Below are positions 9,978-40,222 of a stretch of DNA of 41,667 nucleotides, one piece after another. This DNA comes from Pseudobutyrivibrio sp. (GTDB lineage Bacteria; Bacillota; Clostridia; Lachnospirales; Lachnospiraceae), in contig JAFYYE010000230.1 of assembly GCA_017557715.1 (NCBI GenBank), positions 1-41,667 of the forward strand, given 5' to 3'. The notes under the pieces are model-generated. The model made no database searches. It was not told the DNA's origin and saw only the letters and a list, made by a program, of their open reading frames with translations. The position numbers and the translations under genes were made by a program. Each line of letters starts with the position of its first letter. The first letter of the stretch is position 1.

Positions 9978-10184
9978 ATGGCAATTTCTTATAAGAAATT
10001 ATTCAAGCTGATGATTGATCGTAATTTGAAACGAAAAGATTTGAAAGAAATGACGGGGTTAAGTTATTCGACGATTTCTAAACTTGAACGTGGAGAAAAT
10101 GTACAGGTAGATGTCTTAGAAAAAATATGTATTAAATTGAAGTGTCAGCTAAATGAGATTTCGGAAATAATTTTTGATGAATAG
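9978..10184 (+). CDS. Cro/C1-type HTH regulator heading the defence operon
   Basis: ISYKKLFKLMIDRNLKRKDL...STISKL.RGENV..VLEKIC..L.C. Confidence 0.88.
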   Translation: MAISYKKLFKLMIDRNLKRKDLKEMTGLSYSTISKLERGENVQVDVLEKICIKLKCQLNEISEIIFDE

Positions 10185-10197
10185 TAAGGGTGAAAAT

Positions 10198-15470: not shown

Positions 15471-15474
15471 ACCC

Positions 15475-17589: not shown

Positions 17590-17591
17590 CT

Positions 17592-18359
17592 ATGAGGAAA
17601 AATTGGAGTCGAGAAGAAACAATATTAGCATTGGATTTGTATTGGAAAATACCGTTTTCTAAAATTGGAAAAACTAATAAATTGATTGTACAATTGGCAG
17701 ATTTAATAGGAAGAACGCCAAGTGCAGTAGGTTTAAAAATTGCTAATTTAGCCCATTGGGATCCTGAGCTACAGGCACGAAATATTAGCGGAATGAAAAA
17801 CACAAGTAAGCTTGATAAGGAGATATTCGAAGAATTCTATGGTCGATGGGATCAATTGGCATACGAATCAGAAATAATAAAATCATCGTTCGGTTTGACG
17901 GAAACGGATTGTTATGATGGGGTTGATATGTCAGATATTCCTACTGGTGCTGATAAAGAAAGTGTTGTTAAAACAAGAGTAGGCCAAAAATTCTTTAGAG
18001 AATCTGTTTTAGGAAATTTCAATTATCAGTGCTGTGTTACTGGCATTAATTCTCCGTTGTTGTTGCGGGCTAGTCATATTAAACCATGGCGAAATAGTGA
18101 TCCTCTTACTGAAAGAACAAATCCTAAAAATGGTCTTTGTTTAAATAATTTACATGATCAAGCATTTGATTGTGGTTTGATTACTTTAAACATGAATTAT
18201 GAGCTTATTTTTTCAAAAGAATTAAAAAATGTAAAAATGAATTTGGGTACAAGAGATTGGTTTTATAGTTTTAAAGGGAAAAAAATCTTTTTGCCAGAAC
18301 ATTTTTTGCCGGATAAAAAATTTATTGAATATCATAATGATTATATTTTTATCCAATAG
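17592..18359 (+). CDS. HNH endonuclease (putative restriction nuclease)
   Basis: RVGQKFFR, CCVTG, LRASHIKPW, NGLCL..LHDQAFDCGLI. Confidence 0.9.
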   Translation: MRKNWSREETILALDLYWKIPFSKIGKTNKLIVQLADLIGRTPSAVGLKIANLAHWDPELQARNISGMKNTSKLDKEIFEEFYGRWDQLAYESEIIKSSFGLTETDCYDGVDMSDIPTGADKESVVKTRVGQKFFRESVLGNFNYQCCVTGINSPLLLRASHIKPWRNSDPLTERTNPKNGLCLNNLHDQAFDCGLITLNMNYELIFSKELKNVKMNLGTRDWFYSFKGKKIFLPEHFLPDKKFIEYHNDYIFIQ

Positions 18360-18462
18360 ATGCTTATCATAGATGGATATGATAAAATTAAGTTCATATG
18401 CTGCGGCATTTTCCGCTGTGAACGTGGAAGCACGTTAATCTTAAGAAAGAGAATAATTGTAA

Positions 18463-19524
18463 ATGAAAAAAGAAGTATTTAAATTAGGTGAATTGTACTG
18501 TGGCCCAGGGGGGCTTGCATGTGGAGCGTTACGTGCTAAAAGCGATGATGGGAATTTGGGGTTAGTTCATGCGTGGGCTAATGACTATGATAAAGACACA
18601 TGCGCAACATATACCAAGAACATTTGCCCAGATAATCCTGAAAGTGTTCATTGTGGAGATGTAAGAGAGCTAAATATACCAGCTTTAGGTGAGATTGATG
18701 CCTTTGCTTATGGATTTCCATGTAATTCTTTCTCTAATGTTGGTGAGCACCAGGGATTATCAAACGAAAAATTTGGTCAGTTATATTGGTATGGAATAGA
18801 GGTGTTACGACACTATAAGCCAAAATGGTTTATGGCTGAAAATGTTTCTGGCATAAGGTCTGCTGGTAGTAATGATTTTAAAATTATATTAGATGATATG
18901 CGAGATTCGGGATATAAATTGACAGCCCATCTATATAAAGCAGAAGATTATGGTGTCCCACAAACTCGACACAGAGTTATTATTGTTGGTATTCGAGATG
19001 ATTTAGATGTTGAATTTAAAGTTCCTTCTCCTGCACCATATAAAAAGTGTGATATATCTGCAAGAACTGCTTTATCTGGAATAACACCGGATATGCCTAA
19101 TACAGAAAAAAGAGCATTATCAGATACTGTAGTAGCTAGGCTTTCTTATATAAAGCCTGGACAAAATGTATGGCAAGCAGAAGCTTCTGGAAATTTGCCT
19201 GATGAGCTTAGAATTAAAACAAGGACTAAGATATCGCAGATATATCGTAAATTAGATCCAGATAAACCAAGCTACACTATTACGGCTTCTGGAGGGGGTG
19301 GCACCTTTGGCTATCATTGGACAGATAGAGAACTTACTAATAGAGAAAGAGCTAGGATACAGACATTCCCTGATAACTATGAATTTGTTGGAAAATATGC
19401 ATCAGTAAGAAAACAAATTGGGATGGCAGTTCCATGTAAACTTAGTGAAGTTGTTACTACTGCAATACTAAATTCCTTTGCAGGAATAGAGTATGAGAGT
19501 ATTGAGGCAAATCTTAATGAGTAA
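18463..19524 (+). CDS. DNA (cytosine-5) methyltransferase, resembling M.BbvI/M.NgoFVII
   Basis: Motif I ELYCGPGG, IV GFPC, VI ENV, VIII QTRHR, IX-X RERARIQTFPD / KQIGMAVP; TRD SQIYRKL.PDKPSYTIT.SGGGGT recalled as BbvI-like. Confidence 0.93.
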   Translation: MKKEVFKLGELYCGPGGLACGALRAKSDDGNLGLVHAWANDYDKDTCATYTKNICPDNPESVHCGDVRELNIPALGEIDAFAYGFPCNSFSNVGEHQGLSNEKFGQLYWYGIEVLRHYKPKWFMAENVSGIRSAGSNDFKIILDDMRDSGYKLTAHLYKAEDYGVPQTRHRVIIVGIRDDLDVEFKVPSPAPYKKCDISARTALSGITPDMPNTEKRALSDTVVARLSYIKPGQNVWQAEASGNLPDELRIKTRTKISQIYRKLDPDKPSYTITASGGGGTFGYHWTDRELTNRERARIQTFPDNYEFVGKYASVRKQIGMAVPCKLSEVVTTAILNSFAGIEYESIEANLNE

Positions 19525-21070
19525 ACGTTGTAATTATTGGTGGGTGACTAGACCTAAAAGAAAACTAAATTCCATTCCTGAAATTCTTTCAGTATTTGCT
19601 GGCGCTACATTAGAACATCAGTGGGATGGCAGTAGAAGTCTTCATATTCAGTTCGAAGATGCGTTAGAAGATGCAGGGCTAAAAAGAAAAGGAACACGAA
19701 GAGATCAAGGTGGGTCTGGTGGTAGAACTTATGCTGCTTGGCTTCGTTCGTTAGGTTTAATATGTGAAGAAACCACTACTAAGCAAGTTTATTTAACACT
19801 AGCAGGTGAGGCAATTATTGATGGAAAGTCACCAGTACAGGTTTTAAAGAAACAAGTGTTGGATTATCAGTTTCCTTCACATTTCTCTCTTTCTGTAGGG
19901 GTTGATGAACGATTTAAAATTAAGCCTTTTAGATTTTTACTACGTTTATTATTGGATGAAAGAATAGGTTCTTTATCAACAGAAGAAGTCGGTAAAATTG
20001 TTATTACAGAGGCCGAAACTGAAAAAGATTTTGAAAAAATAGTAAATCGAATAATTGCATATAGGAATTTTGGTGATGAAGTATTAGCAGATGATTTTTT
20101 TGAACAATATATTCCGGAGGTAAATCCAGAAGCGCACGACAAATTTCAGAAACTTACAGATATTGCTAATACGATGTTTAATTGGTTAGAATATACCCAA
20201 TTGATTGGAAGAGACACCAAAATTATTTTTATTCCAGAGGAAAAGATTGCTGAAGTAAGAACTATAATAGATAATAAATCTTCTATAATATTAAATGCTG
20301 AAGATGGGGAATTTTTTCAGCGAAAATATGGGATTGATCCATGGCATAAAAAAGATACTAGAAATTTATTAGCAACAAAAACTGTTACTGCTAGAAGTAT
20401 TGATATTCAGAAGATAAAGAATGCATTGATTATTCTTGCATCACAAAAACCAATAAATACGATTGATTTTGATATAATAAATCAAGTCAGTGAAATTACA
20501 GGAACAGATAGAAAGCTTGTTGAGGAAACATTATTATCATCATATCCTCACGGTTTAGTTGGTGGTTTTTTAGCAAATTATTATGAAATGGCATTTAAAG
20601 GAACAGAAGAAGCTGTTGAATTTGAAAAGGCGACAACAGAAATTTTTAACAGCGTGTTTGGGTATAAGGCAATTCATTTAGGACAAACAGGCTCAAAATC
20701 AGCTCCAGACATTCTTTTGCTTTCCGATGATGAAGGATATCAGGCTATTATTGATAATAAGGCATACAGCAAATATAGTATTACTGGTGACCACCATAAT
20801 CGTATGGTTCATAACTATATTGGTAAGATTGGCAATTATAGTGAGAGTCATTATCCATTGGCTTTCTTCTCTTACATAGCAGGCGGATTTATTTCAACTA
20901 TTGATAAGCAGATAGCATCTGAGGTTTATGAATCAAATGTACATGGCTCGGGTATAACGGTTGGAACATTTATAAAAATGGTAGAAAAACATAATGCTAC
21001 CCCTTATTCGCACAAAGAACTTCGAAATATTTTTTCTGTTGATAGAGAAGTTAAGTTAGCTGATATATAG
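19517..21070 (+). CDS. Type IIS-like restriction endonuclease (AlwI-family N-terminus, FokI-like cleavage domain)
   Basis: LTLAGE..KPFRFLL.LL in the N-terminal part; C-terminal FEK....F..VFGY...HLG....APD......IIDNKAYS..Y matches the FokI PD..DxK domain; overlaps the MTase stop. Confidence 0.82.
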   Translation: MSKRCNYWWVTRPKRKLNSIPEILSVFAGATLEHQWDGSRSLHIQFEDALEDAGLKRKGTRRDQGGSGGRTYAAWLRSLGLICEETTTKQVYLTLAGEAIIDGKSPVQVLKKQVLDYQFPSHFSLSVGVDERFKIKPFRFLLRLLLDERIGSLSTEEVGKIVITEAETEKDFEKIVNRIIAYRNFGDEVLADDFFEQYIPEVNPEAHDKFQKLTDIANTMFNWLEYTQLIGRDTKIIFIPEEKIAEVRTIIDNKSSIILNAEDGEFFQRKYGIDPWHKKDTRNLLATKTVTARSIDIQKIKNALIILASQKPINTIDFDIINQVSEITGTDRKLVEETLLSSYPHGLVGGFLANYYEMAFKGTEEAVEFEKATTEIFNSVFGYKAIHLGQTGSKSAPDILLLSDDEGYQAIIDNKAYSKYSITGDHHNRMVHNYIGKIGNYSESHYPLAFFSYIAGGFISTIDKQIASEVYESNVHGSGITVGTFIKMVEKHNATPYSHKELRNIFSVDREVKLADI

Positions 21071-26625: not shown

Positions 26626-26973
26626 ATGTCTATGAATAGAGATAAATCATGCATTATTAAGGGAATGGGTTCCAGACTAGAAGAAGTACAACGAAATCTT
26701 GGTCTTACCCAGGATGAAATGGCAGAAATGATGGGGATTTCAAAAGAGCAATATCGTAAGTATTGTAAAGGGCATTCAGAAATACCATCGACTAAGTTAT
26801 TTGTTTTATTTGATAACATGCGCTTTGATATTAAATACGTTATGACAGGAGTTCGTGAGGATGAAGAGGAATCCTTTGAAGAACATTTGTCATCTATGAC
26901 AGAAGAAGGAAGGACAAAATATATAAGAGACATCGTAAATTGTTTTGGTAATAGAATTATAAAGGTATTTTAA
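26626..26973 (+). CDS. XRE-family HTH regulator
   Basis: MGSRLEEVQRNLGLTQDEMAEMMGISKEQYRKYCKG. Confidence 0.85.
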   Translation: MSMNRDKSCIIKGMGSRLEEVQRNLGLTQDEMAEMMGISKEQYRKYCKGHSEIPSTKLFVLFDNMRFDIKYVMTGVREDEEESFEEHLSSMTEEGRTKYIRDIVNCFGNRIIKVF

Positions 26974-26989
26974 TAATAGTGGTAATACT

Positions 26990-27022
26990 AAGATCAAGGT
27001 GGTTAGCTGCCTTGGTCTTTTT
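26990..27022 (+). terminator. Intrinsic terminator
   Basis: aagatcaaggtgg/ctgccttggtctt followed by T-run. Confidence 0.75.
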
Positions 27023-27077
27023 ATTATATTTGGGAGAAACTGCGGGATACTTGTTATGAAAACGGAGGAAGTGAAAA

Positions 27078-27620
27078 ATGGGAAGAAAATCCAAGGATGA
27101 ACAGGGGATTGATATTATATGCGAGGGGAATGGTATTGATCCTGATGTAGATTATGAACTTACAATGATGATGTTTGAGCATCACAGTAGAAGTGTGGTC
27201 GCTGGTAAGATGCTTTCAAGCATTGTTAAACTAGCTAATCCAGATAAGGTAAGACGTCAAATGCGTAAAGATTTTCTTTGGGTAGTTAATCAGCCAATTT
27301 CAGAATCAAAAGACATGCAACAAAGACTGCTCTGGCAGGTGTCAGAGTATGAGTGGCTTATAGAACCAAGAGATTATATCCTTGAAGGAATGAAAGATTA
27401 TGGAAATTCTGGCCCTATATATCACAAGATTATTACTGATTACTATCTTAGGAAGGATAGAAAAACGGTTGATGAGCTTGCTAAAGAGTTAGGTTTTAGC
27501 AGAGCCAGCATTGAGAATAAAAAGCGAGAAGCTATTAAGCTATTTGGAATCATGATGTACCGATATGCTTATGAAAAAGAGCAGGAAGAGGCCGAAAAAG
27601 AAGATAATACTCATAATTAG
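27078..27620 (+). CDS. Putative transcriptional regulator with a C-terminal sigma-region-4/ArpU-like HTH
   Basis: IITDYYL....TVDELAKELGFSRASIENKKREAIKLF. Confidence 0.65.
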   Translation: MGRKSKDEQGIDIICEGNGIDPDVDYELTMMMFEHHSRSVVAGKMLSSIVKLANPDKVRRQMRKDFLWVVNQPISESKDMQQRLLWQVSEYEWLIEPRDYILEGMKDYGNSGPIYHKIITDYYLRKDRKTVDELAKELGFSRASIENKKREAIKLFGIMMYRYAYEKEQEEAEKEDNTHN

Positions 27621-27627
27621 CCTGATT

Positions 27628-27662
27628 ATGCCTACAGTTTTTGTGACTGTGGGCATTTTTTT
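27628..27662 (+). terminator. Intrinsic terminator
   Basis: atgcctacagt / actgtgggcat followed by T-run. Confidence 0.8.
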
Positions 27663-27669
27663 ATGGATG

Positions 27670-27790
27670 TGTTAGACACTTGTTTGACACCTGTTAGGGA
27701 ATCGCTAGACATCTGTTAGATAGATGTTAGACATCCGCTAAACAACTGTTAGACGAGTGTTAGACTAAGATTAGACTATTGTTAGGGCTT
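27670..27790. repeat. 11 tandem degenerate 11-bp units, consensus TGTTAGACnnn
   Basis: Units start at 27670, 27681, 27692, 27703, 27714, 27725, 27736, 27747, 27758, 27769 and 27780. Confidence 0.9.
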
Positions 27791-27859
27791 CAAGTTAGAA
27801 GACTTATGATAATATTGTTTTCGCAGGGGAATGAGTTTTTGAAGGAAAGGAGAAGGGCT

Positions 27860-28030
27860 ATGGAATTATTTGTAGAAGACAATCGTGTTTATTGTCCTTG
27901 CTGTGGCAAGCTGGTTATAAAAAAGCTTGCTGGAATGGCAGAGAATAATTGTCCACGTTGTCATGTAAATATTACATGTATTGTAAAGGGGCCAAACTAC
28001 ACTATTATTACATCATTTGGTGAAACTTGA
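27860..28030 (+). CDS. Com-like zinc-finger protein (56 aa)
   Basis: RVYCPCCGKLV......CPRCH resembles the Mu Com family; AAGGAG RBS before ATG 27860. Confidence 0.6.
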   Translation: MELFVEDNRVYCPCCGKLVIKKLAGMAENNCPRCHVNITCIVKGPNYTIITSFGET

Positions 28031-28156
28031 TTTTTTATTTTACATATTTAAATAGAATGAGCTGCTTGTGATAGCGACGAACTGGTCGTAGGAGCCTTAA
28101 GGTCGCAGGCAGGTAGCAAGAGTTTGTGACACGGCTAAGGTGATCAGAGAATTACG

Positions 28157-28221
28157 AAAGGCGGGGCAAAACAGAAGGAAGTATCTAGAGATAGATATTC
28201 TGTTTTGCTTCGTCTTTTTTT
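28157..28221 (+). terminator. Strong terminator/attenuator within a structured leader
   Basis: ggcggggcaaaacagaa / ttctgttttgcttcgtc followed by T7. Confidence 0.8.
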
Positions 28222-28355
28222 GATGCAATAAATAATGCTTCCTTCTGGAGCTCTGAGAGTGATAGAGGATGCATGATTGGGAATGCTATGTAGCAGCTTA
28301 CCCATGACTTTCGGTTTTTGGAACTAATCAATTTTCAAAAATCGGAGGTTAAACA

Positions 28356-28871
28356 ATGAATACAAATAATGAAAACAAAGAATATGAACTTATAAATCTG
28401 GAGTTTGAGTATCCAGGAATTAATGGAGGAGTTAAGTGGGCTGTGATATCGGATTTGCCTATGGAGGAACTGATGAGAAAGTACGGGGCAGAGCTGGAGC
28501 ATTATTCTCCTGTGATACTGCTTTCTGTTGAGCAGGGGGAGGCTTTTAAGGAGTTTCATAAGAATGAGCATAAGCATGATGTTAGAGATTTACGTCATAA
28601 AGTACCTGTTAATTATGATGAAAATTTACAGGGATATCTTCAGCCATTATATGATATAGCCCCTATTGATAACGAAGCTGTACAAACGGAAGAAATGGAA
28701 TTGTTAAGGGTTGCAATAGAATCGCTACCTGCAATTCAACAGAGAAGGCTAAGACTCTACTTTTTTGAAGGATTAAGTTTTAGGGAAATCGCAAAAATAG
28801 AAGGTGTTCGTTTCTCTAGCGTGGCTAAGTCTGTTGATCTAGCAATAAAAAAAATAAAAAAATATTTCTAA
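28356..28871 (+). CDS. Sigma-70 region-4 domain protein (Tn916 Orf7-like activator)
   Basis: LRVAIESLPAIQQRRLRLYFFEGLSFREIAKIEGV..SSV..S...A.KKIK. Confidence 0.88.
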   Translation: MNTNNENKEYELINLEFEYPGINGGVKWAVISDLPMEELMRKYGAELEHYSPVILLSVEQGEAFKEFHKNEHKHDVRDLRHKVPVNYDENLQGYLQPLYDIAPIDNEAVQTEEMELLRVAIESLPAIQQRRLRLYFFEGLSFREIAKIEGVRFSSVAKSVDLAIKKIKKYF

Positions 28872-28939
28872 ATGGGGAGACAAAAGGCCTTTCTCTGTGC
28901 ATATAAGTGAAAAGGTTTTTTGTCGGACATTGATAATTT

Positions 28940-29200
28940 AATACACATTCATCAGGTACGTTCCTGCATGCTGGAGCCCCAACAGGTACGCCTTGCGCGA
29001 TATAGCCTCACTGGAAAATTGGTAACACCAAACTGGCGATGATACATGTAGGTATAATGATACTTCCGCTTAGCCACAATTATCGTAATGGGAGCGGCCC
29101 GGCGAGACCCGCGGGGAGGATAGAACCTATGGAGCTGTGTTGCAGCCGCCTGATTGAATCCCAGGACTGTATCGGGGTGCGTGGCAAATAGATACGAAAC
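28940..29200 (+). ncRNA. Candidate structured ncRNA between the sigma-like gene and the toxin
   Basis: About 260 nt, visibly GC-richer than flanks, no ORF in track, several short stems (caggtacgttcctg; gctg-tgttg-cagc; ccc..ggg). Confidence 0.45.
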
Positions 29201-29214
29201 TAATGATTTATTCT

Positions 29215-29248
29215 AGAGCGTCTTCTTTCTATGTGAAGGCGCTCTTTT
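29215..29248 (+). terminator. Hairpin plus short T-run directly before the toxin RBS
   Basis: agagcgtcttc / gaaggcgctct-ttt. Confidence 0.65.
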
Positions 29249-29271
29249 ATACATAGGAAAGGAGGAGGCTT

Positions 29272-29655
29272 ATGCTAGTAGTTCAACGTGGAGATATTTA
29301 TTTAGCAGATTTAGGTGAAGGAGTTGGCTCAGAGCAGAGAGGTGAAAGACCAGTTCTTATTGTTCAGAACAATAAGGGTAATATCTTTTCACCTACAGTC
29401 ACAGTGCTTCCTATCACTACAAAGATTCATAAGAGTGAGGGAATGCCTACACATGTGATTATTGATGATCTTAATGTGCTGCCAGAGAAATCAGCAATTA
29501 TGGCAGAGCAGATTACCACTATTGATAAGACAAAGTTAATAAGAAAGCTTGGTATCCTTGACAAACGATTCATGAGCAAGGTTGTAAATCCAAAGCTTTT
29601 AATTCAATTAGGTTTTTACGTGGAGGATAAAGAGGGATGGAAAAAGCATTATTAA
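29272..29655 (+). CDS. PemK/MazF-family toxin with no adjacent antitoxin ORF
   Basis: QRGDIYLADL....GSEQ.G.RPVLIVQNN.GN..SPTV.V.PIT ... EQITTIDK. Confidence 0.92.
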   Translation: MLVVQRGDIYLADLGEGVGSEQRGERPVLIVQNNKGNIFSPTVTVLPITTKIHKSEGMPTHVIIDDLNVLPEKSAIMAEQITTIDKTKLIRKLGILDKRFMSKVVNPKLLIQLGFYVEDKEGWKKHY

Positions 29656-29816
29656 CTCTAGATGAATTTCGGGAGTACCTTGGGATAGGCGAGAACAAGG
29701 CTTTAGAACTTGTTAAGCAGCCACATAATGGATTTAGTTTGAAAATTGGAAACAAATGGTTCATTCATAAATCACGGTTAGATCAGTGGCTAGAGAGCGA
29801 ATGCGACAAGTACTAA
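29637..29816 (+). CDS. Excisionase-like HTH protein, copy 1 (not in ORF track)
   Basis: MEKALLTLDEFREYLGIGENKALELVKQPHNGFSLKIGNKWFIHKSRLDQWLESECDKY; overlaps the toxin 3' end. Confidence 0.8.
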   Translation: MEKALLTLDEFREYLGIGENKALELVKQPHNGFSLKIGNKWFIHKSRLDQWLESECDKY

Positions 29817-29902
29817 GTTGATATCATAGACGAAATTAATGTAATGGATTTTAATATAACCATAACAAGCGCTCGTTAAATAATAATAAGGTTGGTGAAG
29901 TT

Positions 29903-30088
29903 ATGGAAAAAGTATTATTAACATTACAGGAGTTTCGTGAATATCTGGGAATTGGTGAGACCAAGGCCAGAGAATTGGTTAGAGATCCGCGTAATCATTT
30001 TAGCCTTATGATAGGAAATAAATGGTATGTAGACAAGAAAGAAGTCGATGCGTGGATACAGAAAGAATGTAAAAAATATAAACTTTAG
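29903..30088 (+). CDS. xis: Excisionase-like HTH protein, copy 2
   Basis: LLTL.E..EYLGIGE.K.REL.....F..MIGNK..V.K Tn916-Xis-like pattern; directly upstream of the integrase. Confidence 0.85.
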   Translation: MEKVLLTLQEFREYLGIGETKARELVRDPRNHFSLMIGNKWYVDKKEVDAWIQKECKKYKL

Positions 30089-30111
30089 ACTATGAAGGTA
30101 GGTAAAAGCAT

Positions 30112-31365
30112 ATGGGAAAAAATCTAAATGGTAGAGAGTTAGGCAAAGGTATAAGCCAACGTAAAGATGGAAGTTATATGGCCCGGTATGTTGATAAGTA
30201 TGGAGTGAGAAAGTCTTTATATGCTAGCAGCATTAATGAAATAAGACTCAAATTAAAAGCGGCACAATACGAAGAAGAAAATCGAATTGTAAGATATTCA
30301 GATATTACACTTACAAAATGGTTTGATACTTGGATGGAGGTTTATAAAAAAAATGCTGTTAGAGCGGGAACTAAAGCAGGATATTTAAACATTTTTGAGA
30401 AACATATAAAACCTTACTTAGGGGCATATGAAATTGGAGAAATTAAAACCAGTGATGTAAGAAGGCTTATAAATAAGCTAGAAGCAGATGGTTTAGGTTT
30501 TGCAACTCAAAATAGAGTAAAAATAATGTTAGTTGACATGTTTGATAAGGCGCTTATGGATGATTTAATAAGAAAGAATCCAGCCAAGGGAGTTCGTGTA
30601 ATCAATAAAGAAGACTTTGAAAGAAGAGTTTTAACAAAAGAGGAGCAGATCACATTTTTTGAATGCTCAAAAGGTACATATTTTGACAACTTATTCGTAG
30701 TGGCAGTTACCACTGGAATGAGAATTGGTGAGATATGTGCCCTGACATGGGATGATATTAATTTAAAGACTAAGAAGATTTCTGTCACAAAAACACTTAG
30801 TTACAGAAAGATTGAGGGAGATGAAAAGCGTTCTTTTCACTTAGGACCACCCAAGACGAAGGCTAGTATAAGAGAGATTCCTATCAGTCCTAAATGTGAG
30901 GTAGCTTTGAAAAAACAATTCATTCTTAGGAATAACATCATGTCAAATCGTAGATGCAAACCTATAGAGGGTTTTGAGAATGTGCTATTTGTATCTCGAA
31001 TTGGTCGACCTTTATGTGATCAGACCATAATTGACAGCATAGATAAGATTATAAACGAGATTAATTATAGCAGAGATGATGCTGACCAATTTCAGCGATT
31101 ATCTCCACATTGTTTTAGACACACTTTTGCTACTAGATGCTTTGAAGCTGGTATTCCACCTAAAACAGTTCAGCACCTACTTGGACATGCTAGTTTAGAT
31201 ATGACTATGAATCTTTATACTCATGTTATGGATGATAAAAAAGATGAAGCTGTTATAGCACTGAATGATTACTATTTTGATATAGAGCAGCAAAAAGAAA
31301 TTGTTATTGAAGACGATTTCAAAAAAGCTATATCAGATAGTCGTAAAGTAGTAGCCTTTGGATAA
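30112..31365 (+). CDS. int: Tyrosine recombinase/integrase (Tn916-Int-like N-terminal DNA-binding domain)
   Basis: GISQRKDG.Y.ARY arm-binding domain; catalytic TGMRIGE, PKT, HCFRH, LGH, NLYTH. Confidence 0.95.
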   Translation: MGKNLNGRELGKGISQRKDGSYMARYVDKYGVRKSLYASSINEIRLKLKAAQYEEENRIVRYSDITLTKWFDTWMEVYKKNAVRAGTKAGYLNIFEKHIKPYLGAYEIGEIKTSDVRRLINKLEADGLGFATQNRVKIMLVDMFDKALMDDLIRKNPAKGVRVINKEDFERRVLTKEEQITFFECSKGTYFDNLFVVAVTTGMRIGEICALTWDDINLKTKKISVTKTLSYRKIEGDEKRSFHLGPPKTKASIREIPISPKCEVALKKQFILRNNIMSNRRCKPIEGFENVLFVSRIGRPLCDQTIIDSIDKIINEINYSRDDADQFQRLSPHCFRHTFATRCFEAGIPPKTVQHLLGHASLDMTMNLYTHVMDDKKDEAVIALNDYYFDIEQQKEIVIEDDFKKAISDSRKVVAFG

Positions 31366-31465: not shown

Positions 31466-31683
31466 TGGTGTGCAATAAGAAAAAAACAATCAAAAAAATG
31501 GTGTAAAAATGGTGTATACTATTTACAGTACACCAGTAAGAATATTTTATTTACAGGCTTTATGAGTCTTACAAAAATATTCATGAACATGTTATTACGT
31601 ATATCAGAACACACCTTATGAGTGGAATAAGATTTCGGAGAAATAGTGTATTTACAGGAGTATGACCAAAGCAAAATGGTGTA
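31466..31683. repeat. Candidate att site with (A)TGGTGTA arm-type repeats
   Basis: TGGTGT at 31466; ATGGTGTA at 31498, 31509 and 31676; inverted TACACCA at 31529; TATTTACAGG at 31548 and 31649. Confidence 0.6.
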
Positions 31684-31766: not shown

Positions 31767-31915
31767 ATGGCAAAAAATAAGGATCAAAAATGAATACTCA
31801 TGCTACTACATATGTGTAGATTATTTTTATTAAATAAATGGGTTATATTCAATTTATCAAATAACAGTAGTTCAATCTAATACGTTATATCAGTTTGAAA
31901 GAAGGAGGTAACGGG

Positions 31916-32620
31916 ATGGTTAAAGTTGGTGATATTGTTTCTTTGGAAAATGAATCAACATATTATGGTGGACAAAAGATTCCTCAGTGGGTACTGGATG
32001 ATAAATGGATTATAAAGTCTATATCAGGAGATAAAGTTATTCTTGGGAAAAATGAAAATGGCTCCCATGAAATAAATAGTCCGGTTAATTTGAAATTCGT
32101 TAAAGAGTATAAGGCTGGAGATAGTGCAAATCTAAATAATAAGCCAGTTGAACCAATCTTGCCTCAGAATCCACAAACTAATCAGGGAGGAATGCAAATA
32201 TCACAAAGGGGAGTTGAATTAGTTGCAAAATATGAGGGCTGTAGATTGGAAGCATATAAGTGTCCCGCGGGAGTTTGGACAATTGGATATGGCCATACAG
32301 CAGGAGTAACACCAGGACAGAAGTTGCCATCAAAAGAATATGCTATGGAGTTACTTAGAGCTGACTTGAAAAAATATGGAAACTCTGTAAATGATTTAGC
32401 CAAGAAGGGGATTATTACATTCCCTATTACACAGAATCAGTTTGATGCATTAACAAGCTTCTGTTATAACTGCGGCGCTGGAAATCTTCAGAAGTTAGTT
32501 TCGGGCAGAAATCCATCTCAAGTGGCAGAAAAATTTATGGCTTATACAAAAGGTGGAGGAAAAGTTTTGCCAGGTTTAGTTAGAAGAAGAGAAGAAGAGA
32601 GAGATTTGTTTCTTAGATAA
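31916..32620 (+). CDS. GH24 lysozyme with an N-terminal SH3-like putative wall-binding domain
   Basis: YEGCRLEAYKCPAGVWTIGYGHT (E-x8-C-x5-T), TQNQFDAL.SF.YN.G, LPGLVRRR.EE..LF; AAGGAGG RBS before ATG 31916. Confidence 0.92.
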   Translation: MVKVGDIVSLENESTYYGGQKIPQWVLDDKWIIKSISGDKVILGKNENGSHEINSPVNLKFVKEYKAGDSANLNNKPVEPILPQNPQTNQGGMQISQRGVELVAKYEGCRLEAYKCPAGVWTIGYGHTAGVTPGQKLPSKEYAMELLRADLKKYGNSVNDLAKKGIITFPITQNQFDALTSFCYNCGAGNLQKLVSGRNPSQVAEKFMAYTKGGGKVLPGLVRRREEERDLFLR

Positions 32621-32637: not shown

Positions 32638-33501
32638 ATGCCTTATCGTAGCAAATCGGATGAAAGCAGTATGGATAAAGATGGTAACAATGAATCAATA
32701 ATGGACAGCGATTTTATACCATTAGATGATTTGGTATATGCACCTCTTTATGCGATTGCAAAATCCAATCAACAACTTAGAGCTGATATACTACAGTCTA
32801 TTCGTGCTATGGGAACATCTAAGCAAAATGGGCAAGAAGAAGTTATTCATATGAATAACATTAATATTGCTTATGACCAGATTAGGCCAGAAGGTGACGA
32901 TGGATACAGTGTTGATAATCTACAGGTGCAAGTTCCCTTATTATCAATGGTTCCTGTAACAAATTTGGGAGTCGATAAAGCTGAAATCAACTTTTCTACA
33001 GAAGTAAAAGCTGTAGATAATCCTAATACTGGAGAGCGGAAGATAAATGCAAGAATATGTTCACCCTCTCAAAGAGAAAGTGATTTCTTGCCAAAAATAT
33101 CATATAAGTTACAGGTTTCATCAATACCGGCTACTGAAGGAATCTTACGTCTAACTGACGCCTTGTCATCTAGTCAGGTGGCGAAAAAAATTGGAAGTAC
33201 ACCTATTGCTATCTCTGGAGATTTTGGCACAGATGAACAGAAGAATATTATTCAGAAAATAAAAGTTCTTAAAGCTAAGATTGGCAAGTTAAATCAGTTA
33301 CATCAGAAGATATCAGAAATGATTGATGAACAAGAGAGACTTCATCAGCTTAGTAAAGATTCTTTTGAGGAAGATACATATGAATTTGATAGGGACAAAT
33401 ACAAGATGGCCCAATCCAATATTATTAATCGAATAATGGAATATAAAGAGGAAATTATGAATATGGAAATATCATATGGCCTTGATAAGGATTATGAGTA
33501 G
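32638..33501 (+). CDS. DUF2589-like protein, paralogue A, with C-terminal coiled coil
   Basis: PLDDLVYAPL.A, VPLLSMVPVTNL.VD..EINF..EV and EGILRL.D align by eye with paralogue B. Confidence 0.75.
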   Translation: MPYRSKSDESSMDKDGNNESIMDSDFIPLDDLVYAPLYAIAKSNQQLRADILQSIRAMGTSKQNGQEEVIHMNNINIAYDQIRPEGDDGYSVDNLQVQVPLLSMVPVTNLGVDKAEINFSTEVKAVDNPNTGERKINARICSPSQRESDFLPKISYKLQVSSIPATEGILRLTDALSSSQVAKKIGSTPIAISGDFGTDEQKNIIQKIKVLKAKIGKLNQLHQKISEMIDEQERLHQLSKDSFEEDTYEFDRDKYKMAQSNIINRIMEYKEEIMNMEISYGLDKDYE

Positions 33502-33730
33502 AAAAAAAGCAAAAAAAGAAATCCAATTGGATAGAGGTGAACTACAAAATGTTCTAGATAACATATGTGAAAATATCAATATTGATAGCATTTGTAACTG
33601 GGAAAATTCAAATAAAGAGAAAGTGATTTTTATAGAGAACGTAACTCTTATGTCCTTTGAAGAGCCAGTAATGGCAAAAAAGAAACCTTGTTTTTTAAGG
33701 CGGATAATCGATTGTCTTTTGCGGTGGTAG
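33494..33730 (+). CDS. Small hypothetical protein
   Basis: Overlaps the stop of paralogue A; AAGGA RBS. Confidence 0.55.
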   Translation: MSRKKAKKEIQLDRGELQNVLDNICENINIDSICNWENSNKEKVIFIENVTLMSFEEPVMAKKKPCFLRRIIDCLLRW

Positions 33731-33781
33731 ATACTATGCCCAAAAGAAAAATAAAAAAATATAGAAAGAGAGGTAAAGCGT

Positions 33782-34957
33782 ATGTCAATTGGACAACAAT
33801 TTCAAGGACTCCCTATGGATCAATTAATTGGTAGTCCCTTGTCAGCAGCAGCAGATGCAAGTATTCGTCTAGCTAATTCTACTGCCGACTTCATCAACAA
33901 AGTTGGATTTGATGCGGAAGGTAATGTTAGAAATGTAGCTTTCAGGTACGAAAAACGCAGCACAAATGACGATGGAACAAGCAACTTGGATGAAATGAAA
34001 GTAGATGTTCCAATGTTGGCTATTGTTCCCATTCCAAATCTACAGGTAGACGAAGTCAATATTCTGTTTGATATGGAAGTAAAACAAAGTGAAAGAAGTG
34101 AAACTGCAGTAGATGTAGGTGCAACAATTACAGGTACAGCACGACTCGGAATAATTAGTGTAAGTGTATCTGGTAGTGTTAGTGCTCATCAGGCAAACAC
34201 AAGAAGTAGTGATAACTCGGCTAAATATCATGTTGATGTTAGAGCTACAAATCATGGCACTCCTGAAGGTCTTGCAAGAGTACTGGACATGATGGCTGCT
34301 AACGTAGCACCTTCCCTTGTAGGAAGTACGCTTAAGGACGGTAATGGTCAGGATCTTTCTGAGCAGGCAAGAATCAAAGCAGAAAAGCTTAAGGCTCTTA
34401 GAAACGAAATTAACCAGATAGAGAATAGACTTTCTGCTGCACAGGATGGACTTTCTGCAAGTATTGTTCAACTCAAGAAGGTTGGTCAGAGTCAGCTTAA
34501 TGTTTATCAGTCAATTATGACAAGTAAAATGAATTCCGTTGATAAGCCTAATGCTGGTACTGCTGAAGGTGGAGGTACAGCTGGTAATTCAAATGAAGCA
34601 ATTGAGAAGTACAGCACAGCTATGGATACAGTTAATCAGAGTTGGAATTCTTTCCAGAACAAGGCTTCTGATGTAATTAAGATGATTGCTGACCAAAAAA
34701 ATGATAATGAAGCTTCTGAGAAAAAGACAGTATCGAATCTGTTTGCCCTTAAGTCTATTAAAGATGATGGAGCGGTTGCTGAGTATGGAGCTGGTGAAAC
34801 ATATTATGATTCACTACTTGTAGCACAGCAAAATGCAGTTGAAAGACAGAAGGTTGTTAATCAAACAGAAAATGAACTACTTACAAAGAAGAATGAGTAT
34901 AGTTCAGCAATATCTGGTCCTTCTCAGACAACACCTGCAACAACTCCAAGTACTTAA
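33782..34957 (+). CDS. DUF2589-family protein, paralogue B, with long helical C-terminal extension
   Basis: QFQGLPMDQLIGSPL.AA..A...LA..T..FI..VGF, VPMLAIVPIPNL.VD.V...FDMEVK, TRSSDNSAKYHV.V.A...PEGLARVLDMM. Confidence 0.85.
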   Translation: MSIGQQFQGLPMDQLIGSPLSAAADASIRLANSTADFINKVGFDAEGNVRNVAFRYEKRSTNDDGTSNLDEMKVDVPMLAIVPIPNLQVDEVNILFDMEVKQSERSETAVDVGATITGTARLGIISVSVSGSVSAHQANTRSSDNSAKYHVDVRATNHGTPEGLARVLDMMAANVAPSLVGSTLKDGNGQDLSEQARIKAEKLKALRNEINQIENRLSAAQDGLSASIVQLKKVGQSQLNVYQSIMTSKMNSVDKPNAGTAEGGGTAGNSNEAIEKYSTAMDTVNQSWNSFQNKASDVIKMIADQKNDNEASEKKTVSNLFALKSIKDDGAVAEYGAGETYYDSLLVAQQNAVERQKVVNQTENELLTKKNEYSSAISGPSQTTPATTPST

Positions 34958-34985: not shown

Positions 34986-35273
34986 ATGGCACAACGTAAT
35001 GAGAAGATGACATTTGTTGATGTCGGATTTGTAAAACTCGTCACAGTAGGCAGTGTAAATCCTAATAATCCCTTATCGGATCAGTCTAGGGAATCACAGG
35101 AGAAATATTTGAATCGCTGTCTGAATGATTACCCAAAAGGAATTATTCTATCCAAAGATACAACTATTGGTAGGTATGTGTTGGGGGAACATGAGTTGAC
35201 TATGGAAAAGGTTACATATCATGTGGGCTTTCCTAGAAAACCAATGTGGATGGAAGAAGATGAGGGCGAGTAA
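34986..35273 (+). CDS. Conserved hypothetical protein (95 aa)
   Basis: GGGAGG/GAGGG RBS; in operon. Confidence 0.7.
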   Translation: MAQRNEKMTFVDVGFVKLVTVGSVNPNNPLSDQSRESQEKYLNRCLNDYPKGIILSKDTTIGRYVLGEHELTMEKVTYHVGFPRKPMWMEEDEGE

Positions 35274-35308: not shown

Positions 35309-35608
35309 ATGAAGATTACAACAAATATTGACGAGAGTCACTGCACGATAACACTTGATGGAAAACTTGATACGTCTACTGCGTCATTTGTTCAGGAGAA
35401 ATTCGATGAAATTCCTGCTAATGTATCCCATATAACTGTTGATATGGAGCAGTTGAACTATATATGTTCATCTGGTTTGAGAGTTTTGCTAAAAGAGACA
35501 AAACTAATGAATAATCGAGGTGGAGATGTAGAAGTGATTAACGCAAATGAAGACATTAGAGAAGTGTTTAAAATAACCGGGTTCAATAAAATATTATGTG
35601 TGCGATGA
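35309..35608 (+). CDS. STAS-domain anti-sigma-factor antagonist
   Basis: LDGKLDT.TA, DM..L.YICSSGLRVLL, IREVFKITGF. Confidence 0.92.
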   Translation: MKITTNIDESHCTITLDGKLDTSTASFVQEKFDEIPANVSHITVDMEQLNYICSSGLRVLLKETKLMNNRGGDVEVINANEDIREVFKITGFNKILCVR

Positions 35609-36681
35609 TTCCTTTTATTGATCAAGGATTAAATAGGTGTTACCGGGTAAAGAATAAGTCTGGAGAAGAAAAAACATTTCTTATTCGATTAAGTGAACCC
35701 GGAGACGAAAAAGGAATGATTGAGTGTATTCGTGACGAATACGGTGACACCTATTTTAAGAGAAGTTTTTATAATGAAGGTTTTTTGGCTGAAAAGGCAA
35801 AAAAGAAAGAGATAATTTTCTTAGTTGCAGAGGTTATTGATACAGCTTTGAGAACGGAGTCCTCACGAACCGGAGAAATAGCTGGAATGACAATACTAAA
35901 GGATTTTTATCCAGAGGAATCCATGTGCGAGGTTGCATCACAAATATTTAAGAAAAAATATAGAGGTTTTGGACTGTCGATGATATTTTTTGAGCATAGC
36001 ATGTATATGGTTGAAAACACCAACCGTACATCTGTAATTTGTTTACCTGTTATGTTTCATGATATTACTCAAAGATTAATGAAACGATTTGGATTGGTGG
36101 CAACAGGTCTTATCATGAATGTGTTTGATGTAGAAGGAATTATACATTCATATGATAACGGAAGAAACACCAAACATTCTCAGGGATTGCAGGTAAAGAA
36201 AATATCTAAAACTAAGGTAGGCACTCTATATATACCAAGAGAACATATTAAGTTTTGTAAGAAAATATATAGATCCCTAGGTGTAAAGTATAAGATTTCA
36301 AGATTTTCCAAATATAATAGGAAAACTTCCTTTAGTGAGGTTACTTGTGCCCAAGACGCCAATCAAAACAGCTTAGAAATAAGAATCATTTCCATAGGTG
36401 ATGATGTGTTAGAACAGGTTGATAGGGTACTAAAGGAATATCCTTTAAGAGGAAAACAGACAGCCAATATTTTTCTAAATATTAATGATGAAAACGCAGT
36501 ATGGTTATATGAACAGCTCAAAAACAGGGATTGGTTTTTTGCTGGGTTAAGACCTTTATGTGGTAGAAATGAGTTTATGATTCTACACAACTGTGGAGAA
36601 ACTAAAGTATATTTTGAAGATTATCACATGAGTGAGGAGTTTAGAAAAATAGTTGAGTATGTACAAAAGCATAGGGGGTAA
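35605..36681 (+). CDS. GNAT-like N-acetyltransferase domain protein
   Basis: IR...P.D..GMIECI..EYG.TY; KKYRGFGLS acetyl-CoA motif A; ATGA-coupled to the STAS gene. Confidence 0.65.
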   Translation: MIPFIDQGLNRCYRVKNKSGEEKTFLIRLSEPGDEKGMIECIRDEYGDTYFKRSFYNEGFLAEKAKKKEIIFLVAEVIDTALRTESSRTGEIAGMTILKDFYPEESMCEVASQIFKKKYRGFGLSMIFFEHSMYMVENTNRTSVICLPVMFHDITQRLMKRFGLVATGLIMNVFDVEGIIHSYDNGRNTKHSQGLQVKKISKTKVGTLYIPREHIKFCKKIYRSLGVKYKISRFSKYNRKTSFSEVTCAQDANQNSLEIRIISIGDDVLEQVDRVLKEYPLRGKQTANIFLNINDENAVWLYEQLKNRDWFFAGLRPLCGRNEFMILHNCGETKVYFEDYHMSEEFRKIVEYVQKHRG

Positions 36682-36687
36682 AAAGTT

Positions 36688-37329
36688 ATGCCAATTTTAA
36701 ATTTAGAACATAATACCATTATTGAAAAAGTTATTGACGCTTGTGAGTTTAACGAAGGAGAAGCTGATATTTCCAAATATATTAGAGGCGGAATATGCTT
36801 TGCCTTGAGTGTGGAATGGTTAAGAGCTATTCATGAAAATGTAGCGGGCTGGAATAATGTTTACGGTACAACAAATCATTATAATGCAAATCCAACGTAT
36901 TATATGCAGATCGCTAGAAATTTTCAGGCTTATAAAAGAAGCGATGAAAATTCATTGAGAAGCTTATTAGGAACCAAGACAGTCGAGGCGGATTATACTG
37001 CATTTGCAAGCTTAATGACAGGCAATATTTTTAAGAGATGTGATCCAGGTTCTGGTCATATTAAAACTCCTGATGTATTGGCAAAACAAATCTGTAGTTC
37101 TAGTAATTATTTATTGTTTTATATGGATTTAAAAGAAGGCGCTCATGCAGTAGCTGCATATGTTGATAAAACCAATGGAACAGTATATTTTTATGATCCA
37201 AATTGTGGAGTAGTAAGTTATTCATCAGAAGCTCAGTTGAAGGAATTTCTCACTGAATGGTGGGGAGAGTATAAGGATAAAAGCACAATTAAAAATGTTG
37301 CGCTATATATGGTTATTCCATCAAAATAA
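36688..37329 (+). CDS. YopT/C58-like cysteine protease
   Basis: GICFALSVEWL (Cys), GAHAVAA (His), YFYDPNCG (Asp) triad. Confidence 0.8.
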   Translation: MPILNLEHNTIIEKVIDACEFNEGEADISKYIRGGICFALSVEWLRAIHENVAGWNNVYGTTNHYNANPTYYMQIARNFQAYKRSDENSLRSLLGTKTVEADYTAFASLMTGNIFKRCDPGSGHIKTPDVLAKQICSSSNYLLFYMDLKEGAHAVAAYVDKTNGTVYFYDPNCGVVSYSSEAQLKEFLTEWWGEYKDKSTIKNVALYMVIPSK

Positions 37330-37355
37330 TAAACTCAATTAATAAGTTGATATAT

Positions 37356-37389
37356 GACCGGTCATGTAGACCATGGCCGGTCTATTTTT
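37356..37389 (+). terminator. Hairpin/terminator after the protease gene
   Basis: gaccggtcatg-tagac-catggccggtc followed by tattttt. Confidence 0.6.
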
Positions 37390-37395
37390 AACAAT

Positions 37396-39594
37396 ATGAA
37401 AAGAAAAAAATCAATTCAAAATAAAATAATAGCCCTGCTGCTATCTTCTGTATTAACTGCTTTATTTATTTCGTCAACGTTAGCCTTGTTAAACATAAAT
37501 TCCATGAAAAAAAGTTTTGACAATCAAAGTGAGGAATTCGAGCAATCTACAACAATTTATGTTGAAGATGAAATGATAGATAAAACATGCAAGCAGCTAT
37601 TAATTTTATCCGATAGTAATGCAGCGGCTATAGATAAAAGATTTGAAAATATAAATCATGATGTGGATGGAATTGTAAACCTTGCGGAACATATATATGC
37701 CAATCCAGCTCTCTATAAAGCCAGAAAGGTGGATTTGCCACAAAGGAATAATTACAATTTATCCACTCAGTTATTGTGGTCAAAAAGTATTAGTGATAAT
37801 ACGACCGATAGTCCTACAGTTCCTTCATATACACAAGAAATATCAAAGTTGGCCAACATACAGGATTTGCTGTATGAGATAAACTATAGTAACGATATGA
37901 TTTCATCTGTATACATAGCCACAGAATCCGGCTGGATGATACAGGCAGATTACATATCCAATAAGAAATATTCTGGAGAAAAAGAATTGCCTGATAATTA
38001 TGAGGCATCAGAGCGTCCGTGGTTTATTAATGCAAAAAATAGTGAACGAGGAGAAATAGTTCACACGGAAGTTTTTCAGGATATACATAGCAAATCGGAT
38101 TGTATAGTTTGTTCGAAAGCGGTATATAAAGGGAATGTCTTTGTTGGAGTTGTGGGCGTAGGTTCATATTTGGATGAGATATATCAAGAAGTAGATAAAA
38201 CTAAAACTGTGCTTGAAAAAAATTATTCAAATACAGGGTATGCCTTTTTAGTAGATGAAAATGGAAAAATTGTAGTATCAGGTGCAACTAGTGGAGAAAC
38301 TGCAGTAATAGGAGAAACAAATACTGACTTAAAAAGAAGTAGTAACAGTGATTTGAGAACCCTTGCAGAATCTATGCAGAAAAAAGAGAGTAAATGCACG
38401 AAAATAAAAATCAATGATAAAGAAGTATTTATTGCATATGCGCCACTAGATACGTTGGGATGGAGCTTTGCCACAGTTGTAGATGCCGAAGAAATATTAA
38501 CGCCGGCTAATGAAAGCAAAGAGATGATAAATACTTTGAATTCTAATTTTAATAAAAGCGTAGGAGATTCACAGCAGGTTATAATAATAGAATTTATTAT
38601 TGTGACCATGGTTTTGTTTATTGTGTTTGGATTTTTATCTATTAAATTAGGTAAACGTATTTCCGAACCAGTTCAAAAACTTACTGCTGAAGTAGTAGGA
38701 ACTAATGGAAAAAATCTTGATGGTTTAATTGAATTTGATACAAACGATGAGTTAGAGGATCTTGCAAATGCATTTAACAATATGCGCTTGCAGATAAAAG
38801 AATATATTGAAAATATTAAAATAATCACTAAAGAAAAAGAGAGAATACATACGGAATTACTAGTGGCAACAAACATTCAAAATGATATGCTTCCTGACAG
38901 TTCAAGCATGCTAAATAGTAGTGAAGAATTTTCAATTTATGCTATAGCATATCCGGCGAAAGAAGTCGGAGGTGATTTCTATGATTTTTTCTTTATAGAC
39001 CAAGACCATTTGGCATTTATAGTAGCTGATGTTTCCGGTAAAAGTGTTCCGGCAGGTTTATTTATGGTAATGGCAAAAACACTGATAGAAAATCAGTTGA
39101 TGTTGGGGAAGAATCCTGCTGAGACTTTTGAAGATGTTAATTCTGCATTATGTAGAAATAATCGTAATGGCATGTTTTTAACTGCGTGGTTAGGTTTTTT
39201 AGAACTATCAACTGGCAAGTTGGACTATGTAAACGCTGGTCACAATTGCCCGCTATTATATGAAGCTGAATCTAATACGTATAGTTGGCTTACTGGAGTC
39301 AGTGGCTTTGTATTAGCTGGTATGGAGGATATGACTTACGAACAGAAACATATGGTATTAAAAAAAGGAGACAAGATTTTTGTTTATAGTGATGGAGTGC
39401 CAGAGGCAAATGATATTAAAGGGGATATGTATGGGAATGCTGCATTAGAACTATTCTTTAGTAGGAATTCATCACTTAATCCTGATTCCTTCTGTGGTCA
39501 ATTAAAAACTTCATTAGAACAATTTCAAGGTGAGGCAGAACAATTTGATGATATTACAATGCTATTTTTAGAATATAATGGGGGCAAAAAATGA
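37396..39594 (+). CDS. Membrane sensor phosphatase: TM-dCache-TM-HAMP-SpoIIE/PP2C (RsbU-like)
   Basis: ERPWF cache motif, DELEDLANAFNNM HAMP, EVGGDFYD, ADVSGK, NAGH, YSDGVPEA, QFDDIT; start 37396 or 37354. Confidence 0.92.
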   Translation: MKRKKSIQNKIIALLLSSVLTALFISSTLALLNINSMKKSFDNQSEEFEQSTTIYVEDEMIDKTCKQLLILSDSNAAAIDKRFENINHDVDGIVNLAEHIYANPALYKARKVDLPQRNNYNLSTQLLWSKSISDNTTDSPTVPSYTQEISKLANIQDLLYEINYSNDMISSVYIATESGWMIQADYISNKKYSGEKELPDNYEASERPWFINAKNSERGEIVHTEVFQDIHSKSDCIVCSKAVYKGNVFVGVVGVGSYLDEIYQEVDKTKTVLEKNYSNTGYAFLVDENGKIVVSGATSGETAVIGETNTDLKRSSNSDLRTLAESMQKKESKCTKIKINDKEVFIAYAPLDTLGWSFATVVDAEEILTPANESKEMINTLNSNFNKSVGDSQQVIIIEFIIVTMVLFIVFGFLSIKLGKRISEPVQKLTAEVVGTNGKNLDGLIEFDTNDELEDLANAFNNMRLQIKEYIENIKIITKEKERIHTELLVATNIQNDMLPDSSSMLNSSEEFSIYAIAYPAKEVGGDFYDFFFIDQDHLAFIVADVSGKSVPAGLFMVMAKTLIENQLMLGKNPAETFEDVNSALCRNNRNGMFLTAWLGFLELSTGKLDYVNAGHNCPLLYEAESNTYSWLTGVSGFVLAGMEDMTYEQKHMVLKKGDKIFVYSDGVPEANDIKGDMYGNAALELFFSRNSSLNPDSFCGQLKTSLEQFQGEAEQFDDITMLFLEYNGGKK

Positions 39595-40041: not shown

Positions 40042-40222
40042 AAAGAAGGGTTTTAACAAAAGAGGAGCAGATTACATTTTTTGAATGCTCAAAAGGTACA
40101 TATTTTGACAACTTATTCGTAGTGGCAGTTACCACTGGAATGAGAATTGGTGAGATATGTGCCTTGACATGGGATGATATTTATTTTAAAACTAAGAAGA
40201 TATCTGTCGCCAAAACACTCAG
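40042..40222 (+). pseudogene. Integrase fragment, near-identical to 30620-30800
   Basis: Manual alignment gives 171/181 identities, ungapped; no start codon or continuation. Confidence 0.9.

Follow-up and report, generated by a model that had tools for sequence, protein, structure and literature searches.

In aerolysin, lysenin and epsilon toxin, and in the stem of anthrax protective antigen, a long hairpin carries a Ser/Thr-rich polar stem and an amphipathic tip. In such beta-pore toxins, a hairpin ribbon whose stem is polar on both sides is unstable alone and needs an oligomer. In the bicomponent leukocidins, both subunits supply a stem hairpin. Known holins are, to our knowledge, alpha-helical membrane proteins. 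In type 10 secretion and holin-endolysin systems, a regulated hydrolase without a signal sequence depends on a holin and is encoded beside cargo, according to one account (PMC13284979). Pepco and Trypco (PF24393, PF19631) are small helix-plus-hairpin proteins forming beta-barrel pores, as stated in their description (PMC12642450). For the DUF2589 family (PF11655), no function is described in the literature that we searched (supplements and subscription papers being outside its scope), where the family is named in expression lists only; these give a DUF2589 gene as upregulated with meropenem in Bacteroides fragilis and another upregulated on lactate in Archaeoglobus fulgidus.

We analysed a window of 41,667 nucleotides from a Pseudobutyrivibrio sp. 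genome (2.79 Mb, 82% complete) in which the only DUF2589 matches are two genes, A and B. They are paired as elsewhere in the family, and this subtype adds helical tails, a small gene D and a STAS-SpoIIE module (Table 1). The operon runs in the order signal-less peptidoglycan hydrolase, A, D, B, C, STAS, GNAT-like gene, variable cargo and SpoIIE sensor. Its likeness to the type 10 and holin-endolysin cassettes (Serratia ChiWXYZ, Salmonella ChiH/ChiP, C. difficile TcdE/TcdL) is a signal-less peptidoglycan hydrolase near cargo; here, however, 54 of 55 loci have no alpha-helical holin, soluble beta-hairpin proteins are present instead, and the hydrolase is sometimes absent. As in aerolysin-like toxins, an amphipathic insertion-type hairpin is flanked in B by Ser/Thr-rich polar strands, whereas there is no sequence match to that family, helices sit on the hairpin base, a signal peptide is missing and an obligate paralogue, predicted to be non-inserting, accompanies B. 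Compared with Pepco and Trypco, DUF2589 has an extra hairpin, a longer stem and an asymmetric pair, and lacks a sensor-fused protease. The leukocidins are likewise made of two co-encoded paralogues, but A is without a membrane-length tip, its segment being polar, 36 residues long here and 26–68 among relatives.

Table 1. Features of the DUF2589 locus (window coordinates)
Feature	Coordinates	Strand	Basis
Phage-type lysozyme (GH24), N-terminal extra domain, no signal peptide; likely start ATG 31916	31895..32620	+	PF00959 130 bits; PHROG endolysin
DUF2589 paralogue A, 287 aa, core and two-helix tail (199-284)	32638..33501	+	Pfam, profile comparison, model
A residues 119-154, short polar hairpin segment, 36 aa	32992..33099	+	Model, alignment
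Small gene D, 84 aa (second ATG 33494): helix, strand, basic amphipathic C-terminal helix	33476..33730	+	58-ORF cluster, alignment
DUF2589 paralogue B, 391 aa, core and three-helix tail (194-378)	33782..34957	+	Pfam, model
B residues 87-157, single long antiparallel beta-hairpin, register i+j = 245/247	34040..34252	+	Covariation; fixed length
B residues 110-135, amphipathic tip, predicted membrane-spanning part	34109..34186	+	Face composition
Gene C, 95 aa, no known family, constant B partner	34986..35273	+	73/73 loci
STAS anti-sigma-factor antagonist	35309..35608	+	PF01740; 60/70 loci
361-aa protein, probably GNAT-like	35596..36681	+	Weak PF00583 in relatives; 38/69 loci
YopT-type C58 cysteine peptidase, variable cargo slot, no signal peptide	36688..37329	+	PF03543 49 bits
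Membrane Cache-HAMP-SpoIIE sensor phosphatase	37354..39594	+	Pfam; 52/64 loci

An earlier sequence-only reading of this DNA had placed two DUF2589 paralogues sharing three motifs here; both ORFs lie where it put them and the motifs are present. By sequence comparison A and B are DUF2589 paralogues: both exceed the PF11655 gathering cut-off of 23 bits (60.2 for A, 134.6 for B), BLASTP aligns them at 25% identity over 224 columns (E 3e-14), and the profile-profile probability is 99.4%. The B profile matches 2943 clusters at 50% identity, and its core is 79% identical among 64 long-type relatives; no solved relative was found by sequence search of the PDB. Each tail is built from a short beta-extension, which is conserved, and long helices, and is free of hydrophobic segments. 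That reading had called the tails heptad-like, which holds in part: the AlphaFold2 models of both proteins make them helical, and heptad periodicity exceeds shuffled sequences in two of the five tail helices, both in B (p 0.0095 and 0.0005), but not in B 342-378 (p 0.08) or the two helices of A (p 0.12 and 0.17). Many DUF2589 members are tail-less, and since short-type pairs without tails occur in the same genus, the tails are a feature of the subtype.

The reading had also noted that B is longer than A between the shared motif blocks, and the difference proved larger than first seen: between equivalent anchors the segment has 54 residues in B and 36 in A, an excess of 18, with one 19-residue gap in A, in the BLASTP alignment, at the stretch originally quoted (B residues 108-136, 34103-34189). 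We aligned 432 of 466 B-type sequences, leaving out 34 that were incompletely covered; at 80% identity the effective number is about 157. Segment length is exactly 54 or 58 in 403 of the 432 (about 128 of 157 by weight), the two lengths differing by a step of four, two per strand. Mean-field covariation pairs residues 86-101 with 140-159 (base), 101-110 with 134-147 (stem) and 110-121 with 124-136 (tip). On the diagonals i+j = 245 and 247 the mean Z was 1.70 and 2.40 in the base, 1.43 and 0.90 in the stem, and 1.69 and 1.18 in the tip, against at most 0.81 on other diagonals, which served as control. When only the 127 most divergent sequences are used, the highest value in each zone still falls on 245 or 247; competing diagonals in the tip then reach 1.14 compared with 1.42, and the tip register is the least certain of the three. 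The pair 101-132 is strong (Z 6.5–7.6) and lies outside the main register; a folded-back second conformation built on it was rejected because its diagonal shows no enrichment.

The same 127 sequences divide the hairpin by composition. In the base, one face is 98% hydrophobic and covaries with the N-terminal helix of B, and the opposite face is 54% charged. The stem is polar on both sides (6% and 8% hydrophobic). At the tip, one face is 62% hydrophobic, 14% Gly and 5% charged, and the other is 5% hydrophobic, 33% charged and 46% Ser/Thr. An AlphaFold2 monomer model of B places the turn at 123-124, as in the covariation register. A hairpin buried in a soluble monomer had been named in advance as evidence against insertion; instead, the model leaves the distal hairpin unpacked, with pLDDT below 50 at 108-116 and 125-140. 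By analogy, it appears well supported that this hairpin, with strands of about 35 residues, a tip of 13 residues that is hydrophobic on one side and a stem polar on both sides, has the anatomy of a beta-barrel stem. General knowledge of beta-pore toxins, taken with the zoning, implies that the tip would be bilayer-long and that the stem would need a barrel. A residue-level model (tip 110-135, stem 101-109/136-146) that can be tested is thus offered for a large uncharacterised family.

The proposal that B is the inserting subunit thereby gains independent support from the fixed length, the single register and a conserved tip that is hydrophobic on one side only and lies beyond a polar stem; the searches showed no homology to a known beta-pore toxin, tail tube or gasdermin. 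Foldseek and related fold searches with full-length queries, which barely probed the core, gave no significant row for beta-pore toxin, tail-tube, gasdermin or MACPF folds; a lysenin pore row had a non-significant E of 0.3, the helical tails having filled the lists. Neither the six Pfam rows of B (E up to 10) nor the PDB sequence searches contained a beta-pore toxin. In a viral structure library the matches were DUF2589-like phage proteins only, and an atlas search leaving out PF11655 gave no usable match. Summed over the three readings in which it happens (holin-like, released toxin, suicide pore), membrane insertion by B seems to us a likely event.

Paralogue A is modelled with a B-like core and a short hairpin (strands 121-127 and 134-140). 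Its segment varies from 26 to 68 residues across 96 relatives, compared with the fixed 54 or 58 of B, and its hairpin is 31% charged and without a membrane-length hydrophobic face. The idea that only one paralogue carries an amphipathic hairpin is therefore right as to the face but not as to the hairpin, which A keeps in short form. Covariation in A gave no register signal at an effective depth of 46. A complex prediction with one copy each of A 22-200 and B 1-195 scored 0.05 against a mark of 0.32 and is uninformative either way.

Counts for the operon come from the closest 80 of 444 genome loci, which are kin and not independent. A is present in 79 of the 80, the lone miss having just 209 bases upstream; it lies upstream of B in 79 and on the same strand in 78. 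A is thus the obligate genetic partner of B. The two-component assembly envisaged at the outset stands as far as this pairing goes, but not in its size, as gene C too follows B in all 73 loci with enough flank. C aligns with copies from Vibrio, a deltaproteobacterium and a viral contig, and has no match in Pfam, NCBIfam, PHROG or the PDB. The small protein D is predicted from its sequence to be a membrane-surface anchor: the helical moment is above that of its own shuffles in 48 of 58 ORFs and the median net charge is +7. D has no Pfam match, and its standing as a third DUF2589 paralogue was unsupported (profile match 0.1–0.3%). The 361-residue protein itself has no Pfam match; two longer relatives match PF00583 weakly. 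Relatives of the SpoIIE sensor carry an additional HATPase_c_2 anti-sigma domain. LytTR genes flank some loci (17 ORFs). An uncharacterised LytTR-linked operon of Akkermansia, Amuc_1011-1014, which may or may not belong to this family, is reported to be induced in co-culture (PMC5945754).

The link to a wall hydrolase is close. The lysozyme is the sole PF00959 match in this genome; across related loci a hydrolase cluster (amidase or lysozyme) occurs in 62 of 80, and a lysozyme match in 53 of the 64 with enough flank. In the genus, a phage lysozyme lies beside the pair in all three DUF2589-positive genomes (upstream here, downstream in the two short-type ones), compared with 3 of 31 DUF2589-negative control genomes having one, just one of them full-length. 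A hydrophobic 19-mer was found in none of 76 hydrolase ORFs of related loci, nor in any of 162 A/B, 58 D or 65 C ORFs, and was found in 55 of 64 SpoIIE ORFs as positive control. The window contains no alpha-helical holin gene. Within the hydrolase-to-C span, a small hydrophobic ORF occurs in one of 55 loci (ORFs below 55 aa being uncalled), and in locus L012 a 107-aa hydrophobic ORF, holin-like by eye, lies between B and the amidase.

The reading that we tentatively prefer, giving it somewhat less than an even chance, is that B, aided by A and C, opens the producer's own membrane in place of a holin. B, A and probably C would assemble into a ring, and the long hairpins of the B subunits would together make a beta-barrel whose tips insert into the membrane of the producing cell. 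Such a pore would do the job of a holin, allowing the signal-less hydrolase to reach the wall, and the variable, signal-less cargo proteins would then be released. A would be a non-inserting scaffold or trigger and D a membrane anchor, the SpoIIE-STAS partner switch may control the system, and the helical tails could be a subtype-specific add-on serving as spacer, inhibitor or cargo dock. If this is true, a soluble pair turning into a beta-barrel that exports a wall hydrolase would be a new route to lysis and to signal-independent secretion, and a candidate for the missing holin of cassettes that have none. A wider generalisation is possible but doubtful: DUF2589 cassettes may form an undescribed "beta-holin" class, from gut Clostridia to Vibrio, Burkholderia and phages, in which the alpha-helical holin of type-10-like release has given way to an asymmetric A/B(/C) ring whose fold is unassigned, the system here being switched by SpoIIE-STAS and equipped with a swappable toxin slot.

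Several observations weaken the holin-replacement reading, among them the holin-like ORF of L012, the less clean tip register in the divergent sequences and the kinship of the 80 loci. Five walled genomes keep A and B with no lysozyme or Amidase_2 match (PF00959, PF01510) anywhere, so the hydrolase is not obligatory. Loss of the hydrolase in wall-less hosts was rejected as the cause, because these five genomes carry penicillin-binding proteins. The polar stem, with some 10 residues on each strand, fits a pore docking well away from what it attacks, in the manner of released toxins, and this too counts against a holin. So do the DUF2589-related clusters that exist in archaea, to which bacterial wall hydrolases are inapplicable (PMC3949148). 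The five genomes (L046, L048, L052, L068 and L074) are small and labelled Mollicutes or Anaeroplasmataceae; in their loci an HTH/sigma-like gene replaces the hydrolase, and three have a GH3-family gene.

The contents of the cargo slot bear on a second, rather unlikely explanation, by which B would leave the producer as a pore toxin or translocon directed at other cells, either competing bacteria or protozoa, with lectins binding the target, C58-like enzymes being delivered and the lysozyme acting as co-toxin or release aid. Across loci the slot holds C58 peptidases, jacalin lectins, eCIS_core, an EEP-family enzyme, a GH-E/HNH nuclease, GH3, DUF6765 and many orphans. C58 peptidases make up 7 of 42 proteins scanned, and a C58 match was found in 4 of 69 loci (tblastn), stand-alone and unfused to a sensor. 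In near-identical strains, the contigs spanning A, D, B and C show, for example, 5 differing letters in 1363, 3 in 649 and 11 in 1069, and those spanning the C58 gene 42 in 530 together with 32 gaps, and 94 in 1582 together with 65; that is, C58 diverges by about 4–8% of letters plus many gaps where A and B diverge by about 1% or less, a pattern that we infer to be that of a fast-changing effector slot. The released-toxin explanation is favoured by these lectins, toxin-like enzymes and fast change, by the likeness of the hairpin zoning to aerolysin, by the core being kept without a hydrolase, and by the position of the Vibrio aquimaris trio between eCIS_core/PatG and RebB R-body genes. However, no hydrophobic export signal exists in any of the 162 A/B ORFs, so the way they would leave the cell calls for an explanation of its own; the loci yielded no immunity gene, and endolysin-type enzymes are tightly linked. 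Were it correct, gut commensals would hold a new family of pore toxins or translocons. One orphan cargo family of eight members (L049:3499-4434, L055:4446-5855, L058, L061, L066, L067, L073 and L083) has invariant K, DYD and QHG motifs, which we take to resemble those of class II nucleotidyl cyclases; that identity was rejected, having no Pfam, PDB or hhalign support.

It is improbable, though conceivable, that the two paralogues form a soluble polymer, be it a tube, fibre or shell, with the hydrophobic face of the tip packed on neighbouring subunits and not on lipid. A fixed hairpin length suits any rigid polymer, the very high conservation of B agrees with one, and the weak Foldseek rows are assorted ring and tube proteins; but the hydrophobic face extends over no more than some 13 residues of each strand, at the tip, and is set off by a stem that is polar on both sides, and a signal-less hydrolase without a holin is left unexplained. 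Least probable is a protease- or sensor-gated anti-phage suicide pore resembling Pepco or a bacterial gasdermin, its helical tail being a removable inhibitor, for although Pepco forms 9-11-mer beta-barrels activated by C-terminal cleavage (PMC12642450), 2 of 97 A relatives match Pepco (E 0.017), a protease lies in the operon, and restriction-type genes and an integrase adjoin the locus, the C58 gene occurs in so few loci and unfused to a sensor, neither Pepco nor Trypco is among the 25 families that were listed when 117 B relatives were compared, hhalign to a single Trypco2-like protein scoring below the cut-off gave 3.0% and 0.7%, and phages carry DUF2589 too. Trypco2 was absent from all 121 genomes of a phylum search built around one labelled genome.

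DUF2589 has a patchy distribution, with 5 carriers among 151 relatives and 4 among 401 phylum genomes, counting the source genome, and the nearest named relatives of the B protein are mostly from Lachnospiraceae. The family recurs as A and B pairs, phages included among its carriers. A Burkholderia stagnalis plasmid has the order B-A-lysozyme, a deltaproteobacterial plasmid and Vibrio aquimaris have A-B-C with a muramidase nearby, and a Vibrio tubiashii plasmid has A-B-C; plasmids of Fulvitalea, Streptomyces and Francisella with DUF2589 genes show no annotated hydrolase in the stretch shown. On the Vibrio aquimaris plasmid pTHAF100_a (L114:4138-10990), A-B-C is flanked on one side by an AAA ATPase, eCIS_core and two PatG-domain genes and on the other by a series of RebB R-body genes, and a gene with a RebB-like C-terminal fusion precedes A. 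A link of this trio to R-body or toxin release is possible; a paper on R-bodies (PMC13689365), when searched for it, gave no mention of a "DUF". Another DUF2589 subtype (L106:7369-9520 and L107:5682-8422) has a large beta-rich insertion in its first hairpin. Two conserved genes that look unrelated come after it, and a faint DUF2589-like motif is present in the first of them (hhalign 7.8%).

Around the operon, the part from lysozyme to C58 was uncovered by any DNA match among those listed from 33 genus genomes (40 weaker ones being outside the list), which suggests from sequence comparison that it was gained horizontally. Promoter and terminator scans gave chance level only. RNA-library contigs from three runs match pieces of A and B at about 99% identity, such contigs being no proof of transcription. 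Just 5' of the operon, a 55-bp element (31592-31646) with three copies in this genome and many in genus relatives marks the point where likeness to those relatives ends; it is a candidate recombination site or small repeat element. A 181-bp direct repeat (94%; 30620-30800 and 40042-40222), a piece of an integrase gene duplicated past the far end, brackets the operon. Upstream (26626-31365) lie an HTH gene, a sigma-70 region-4 protein, a PemK/MazF toxin for which no antitoxin ORF of at least 70 aa is evident there, and a Tn916-like tyrosine integrase; the PemK-integrase part is common to several genus genomes. Further upstream (10174-21070) is a stretch that by eye we take to be defence-like, presumably encoding a MORC-type ATPase, a large Z1-like protein, PD-(D/E)XK-like and AIPR-like proteins, an HNH nuclease, a cytosine methyltransferase and a restriction-like nuclease.
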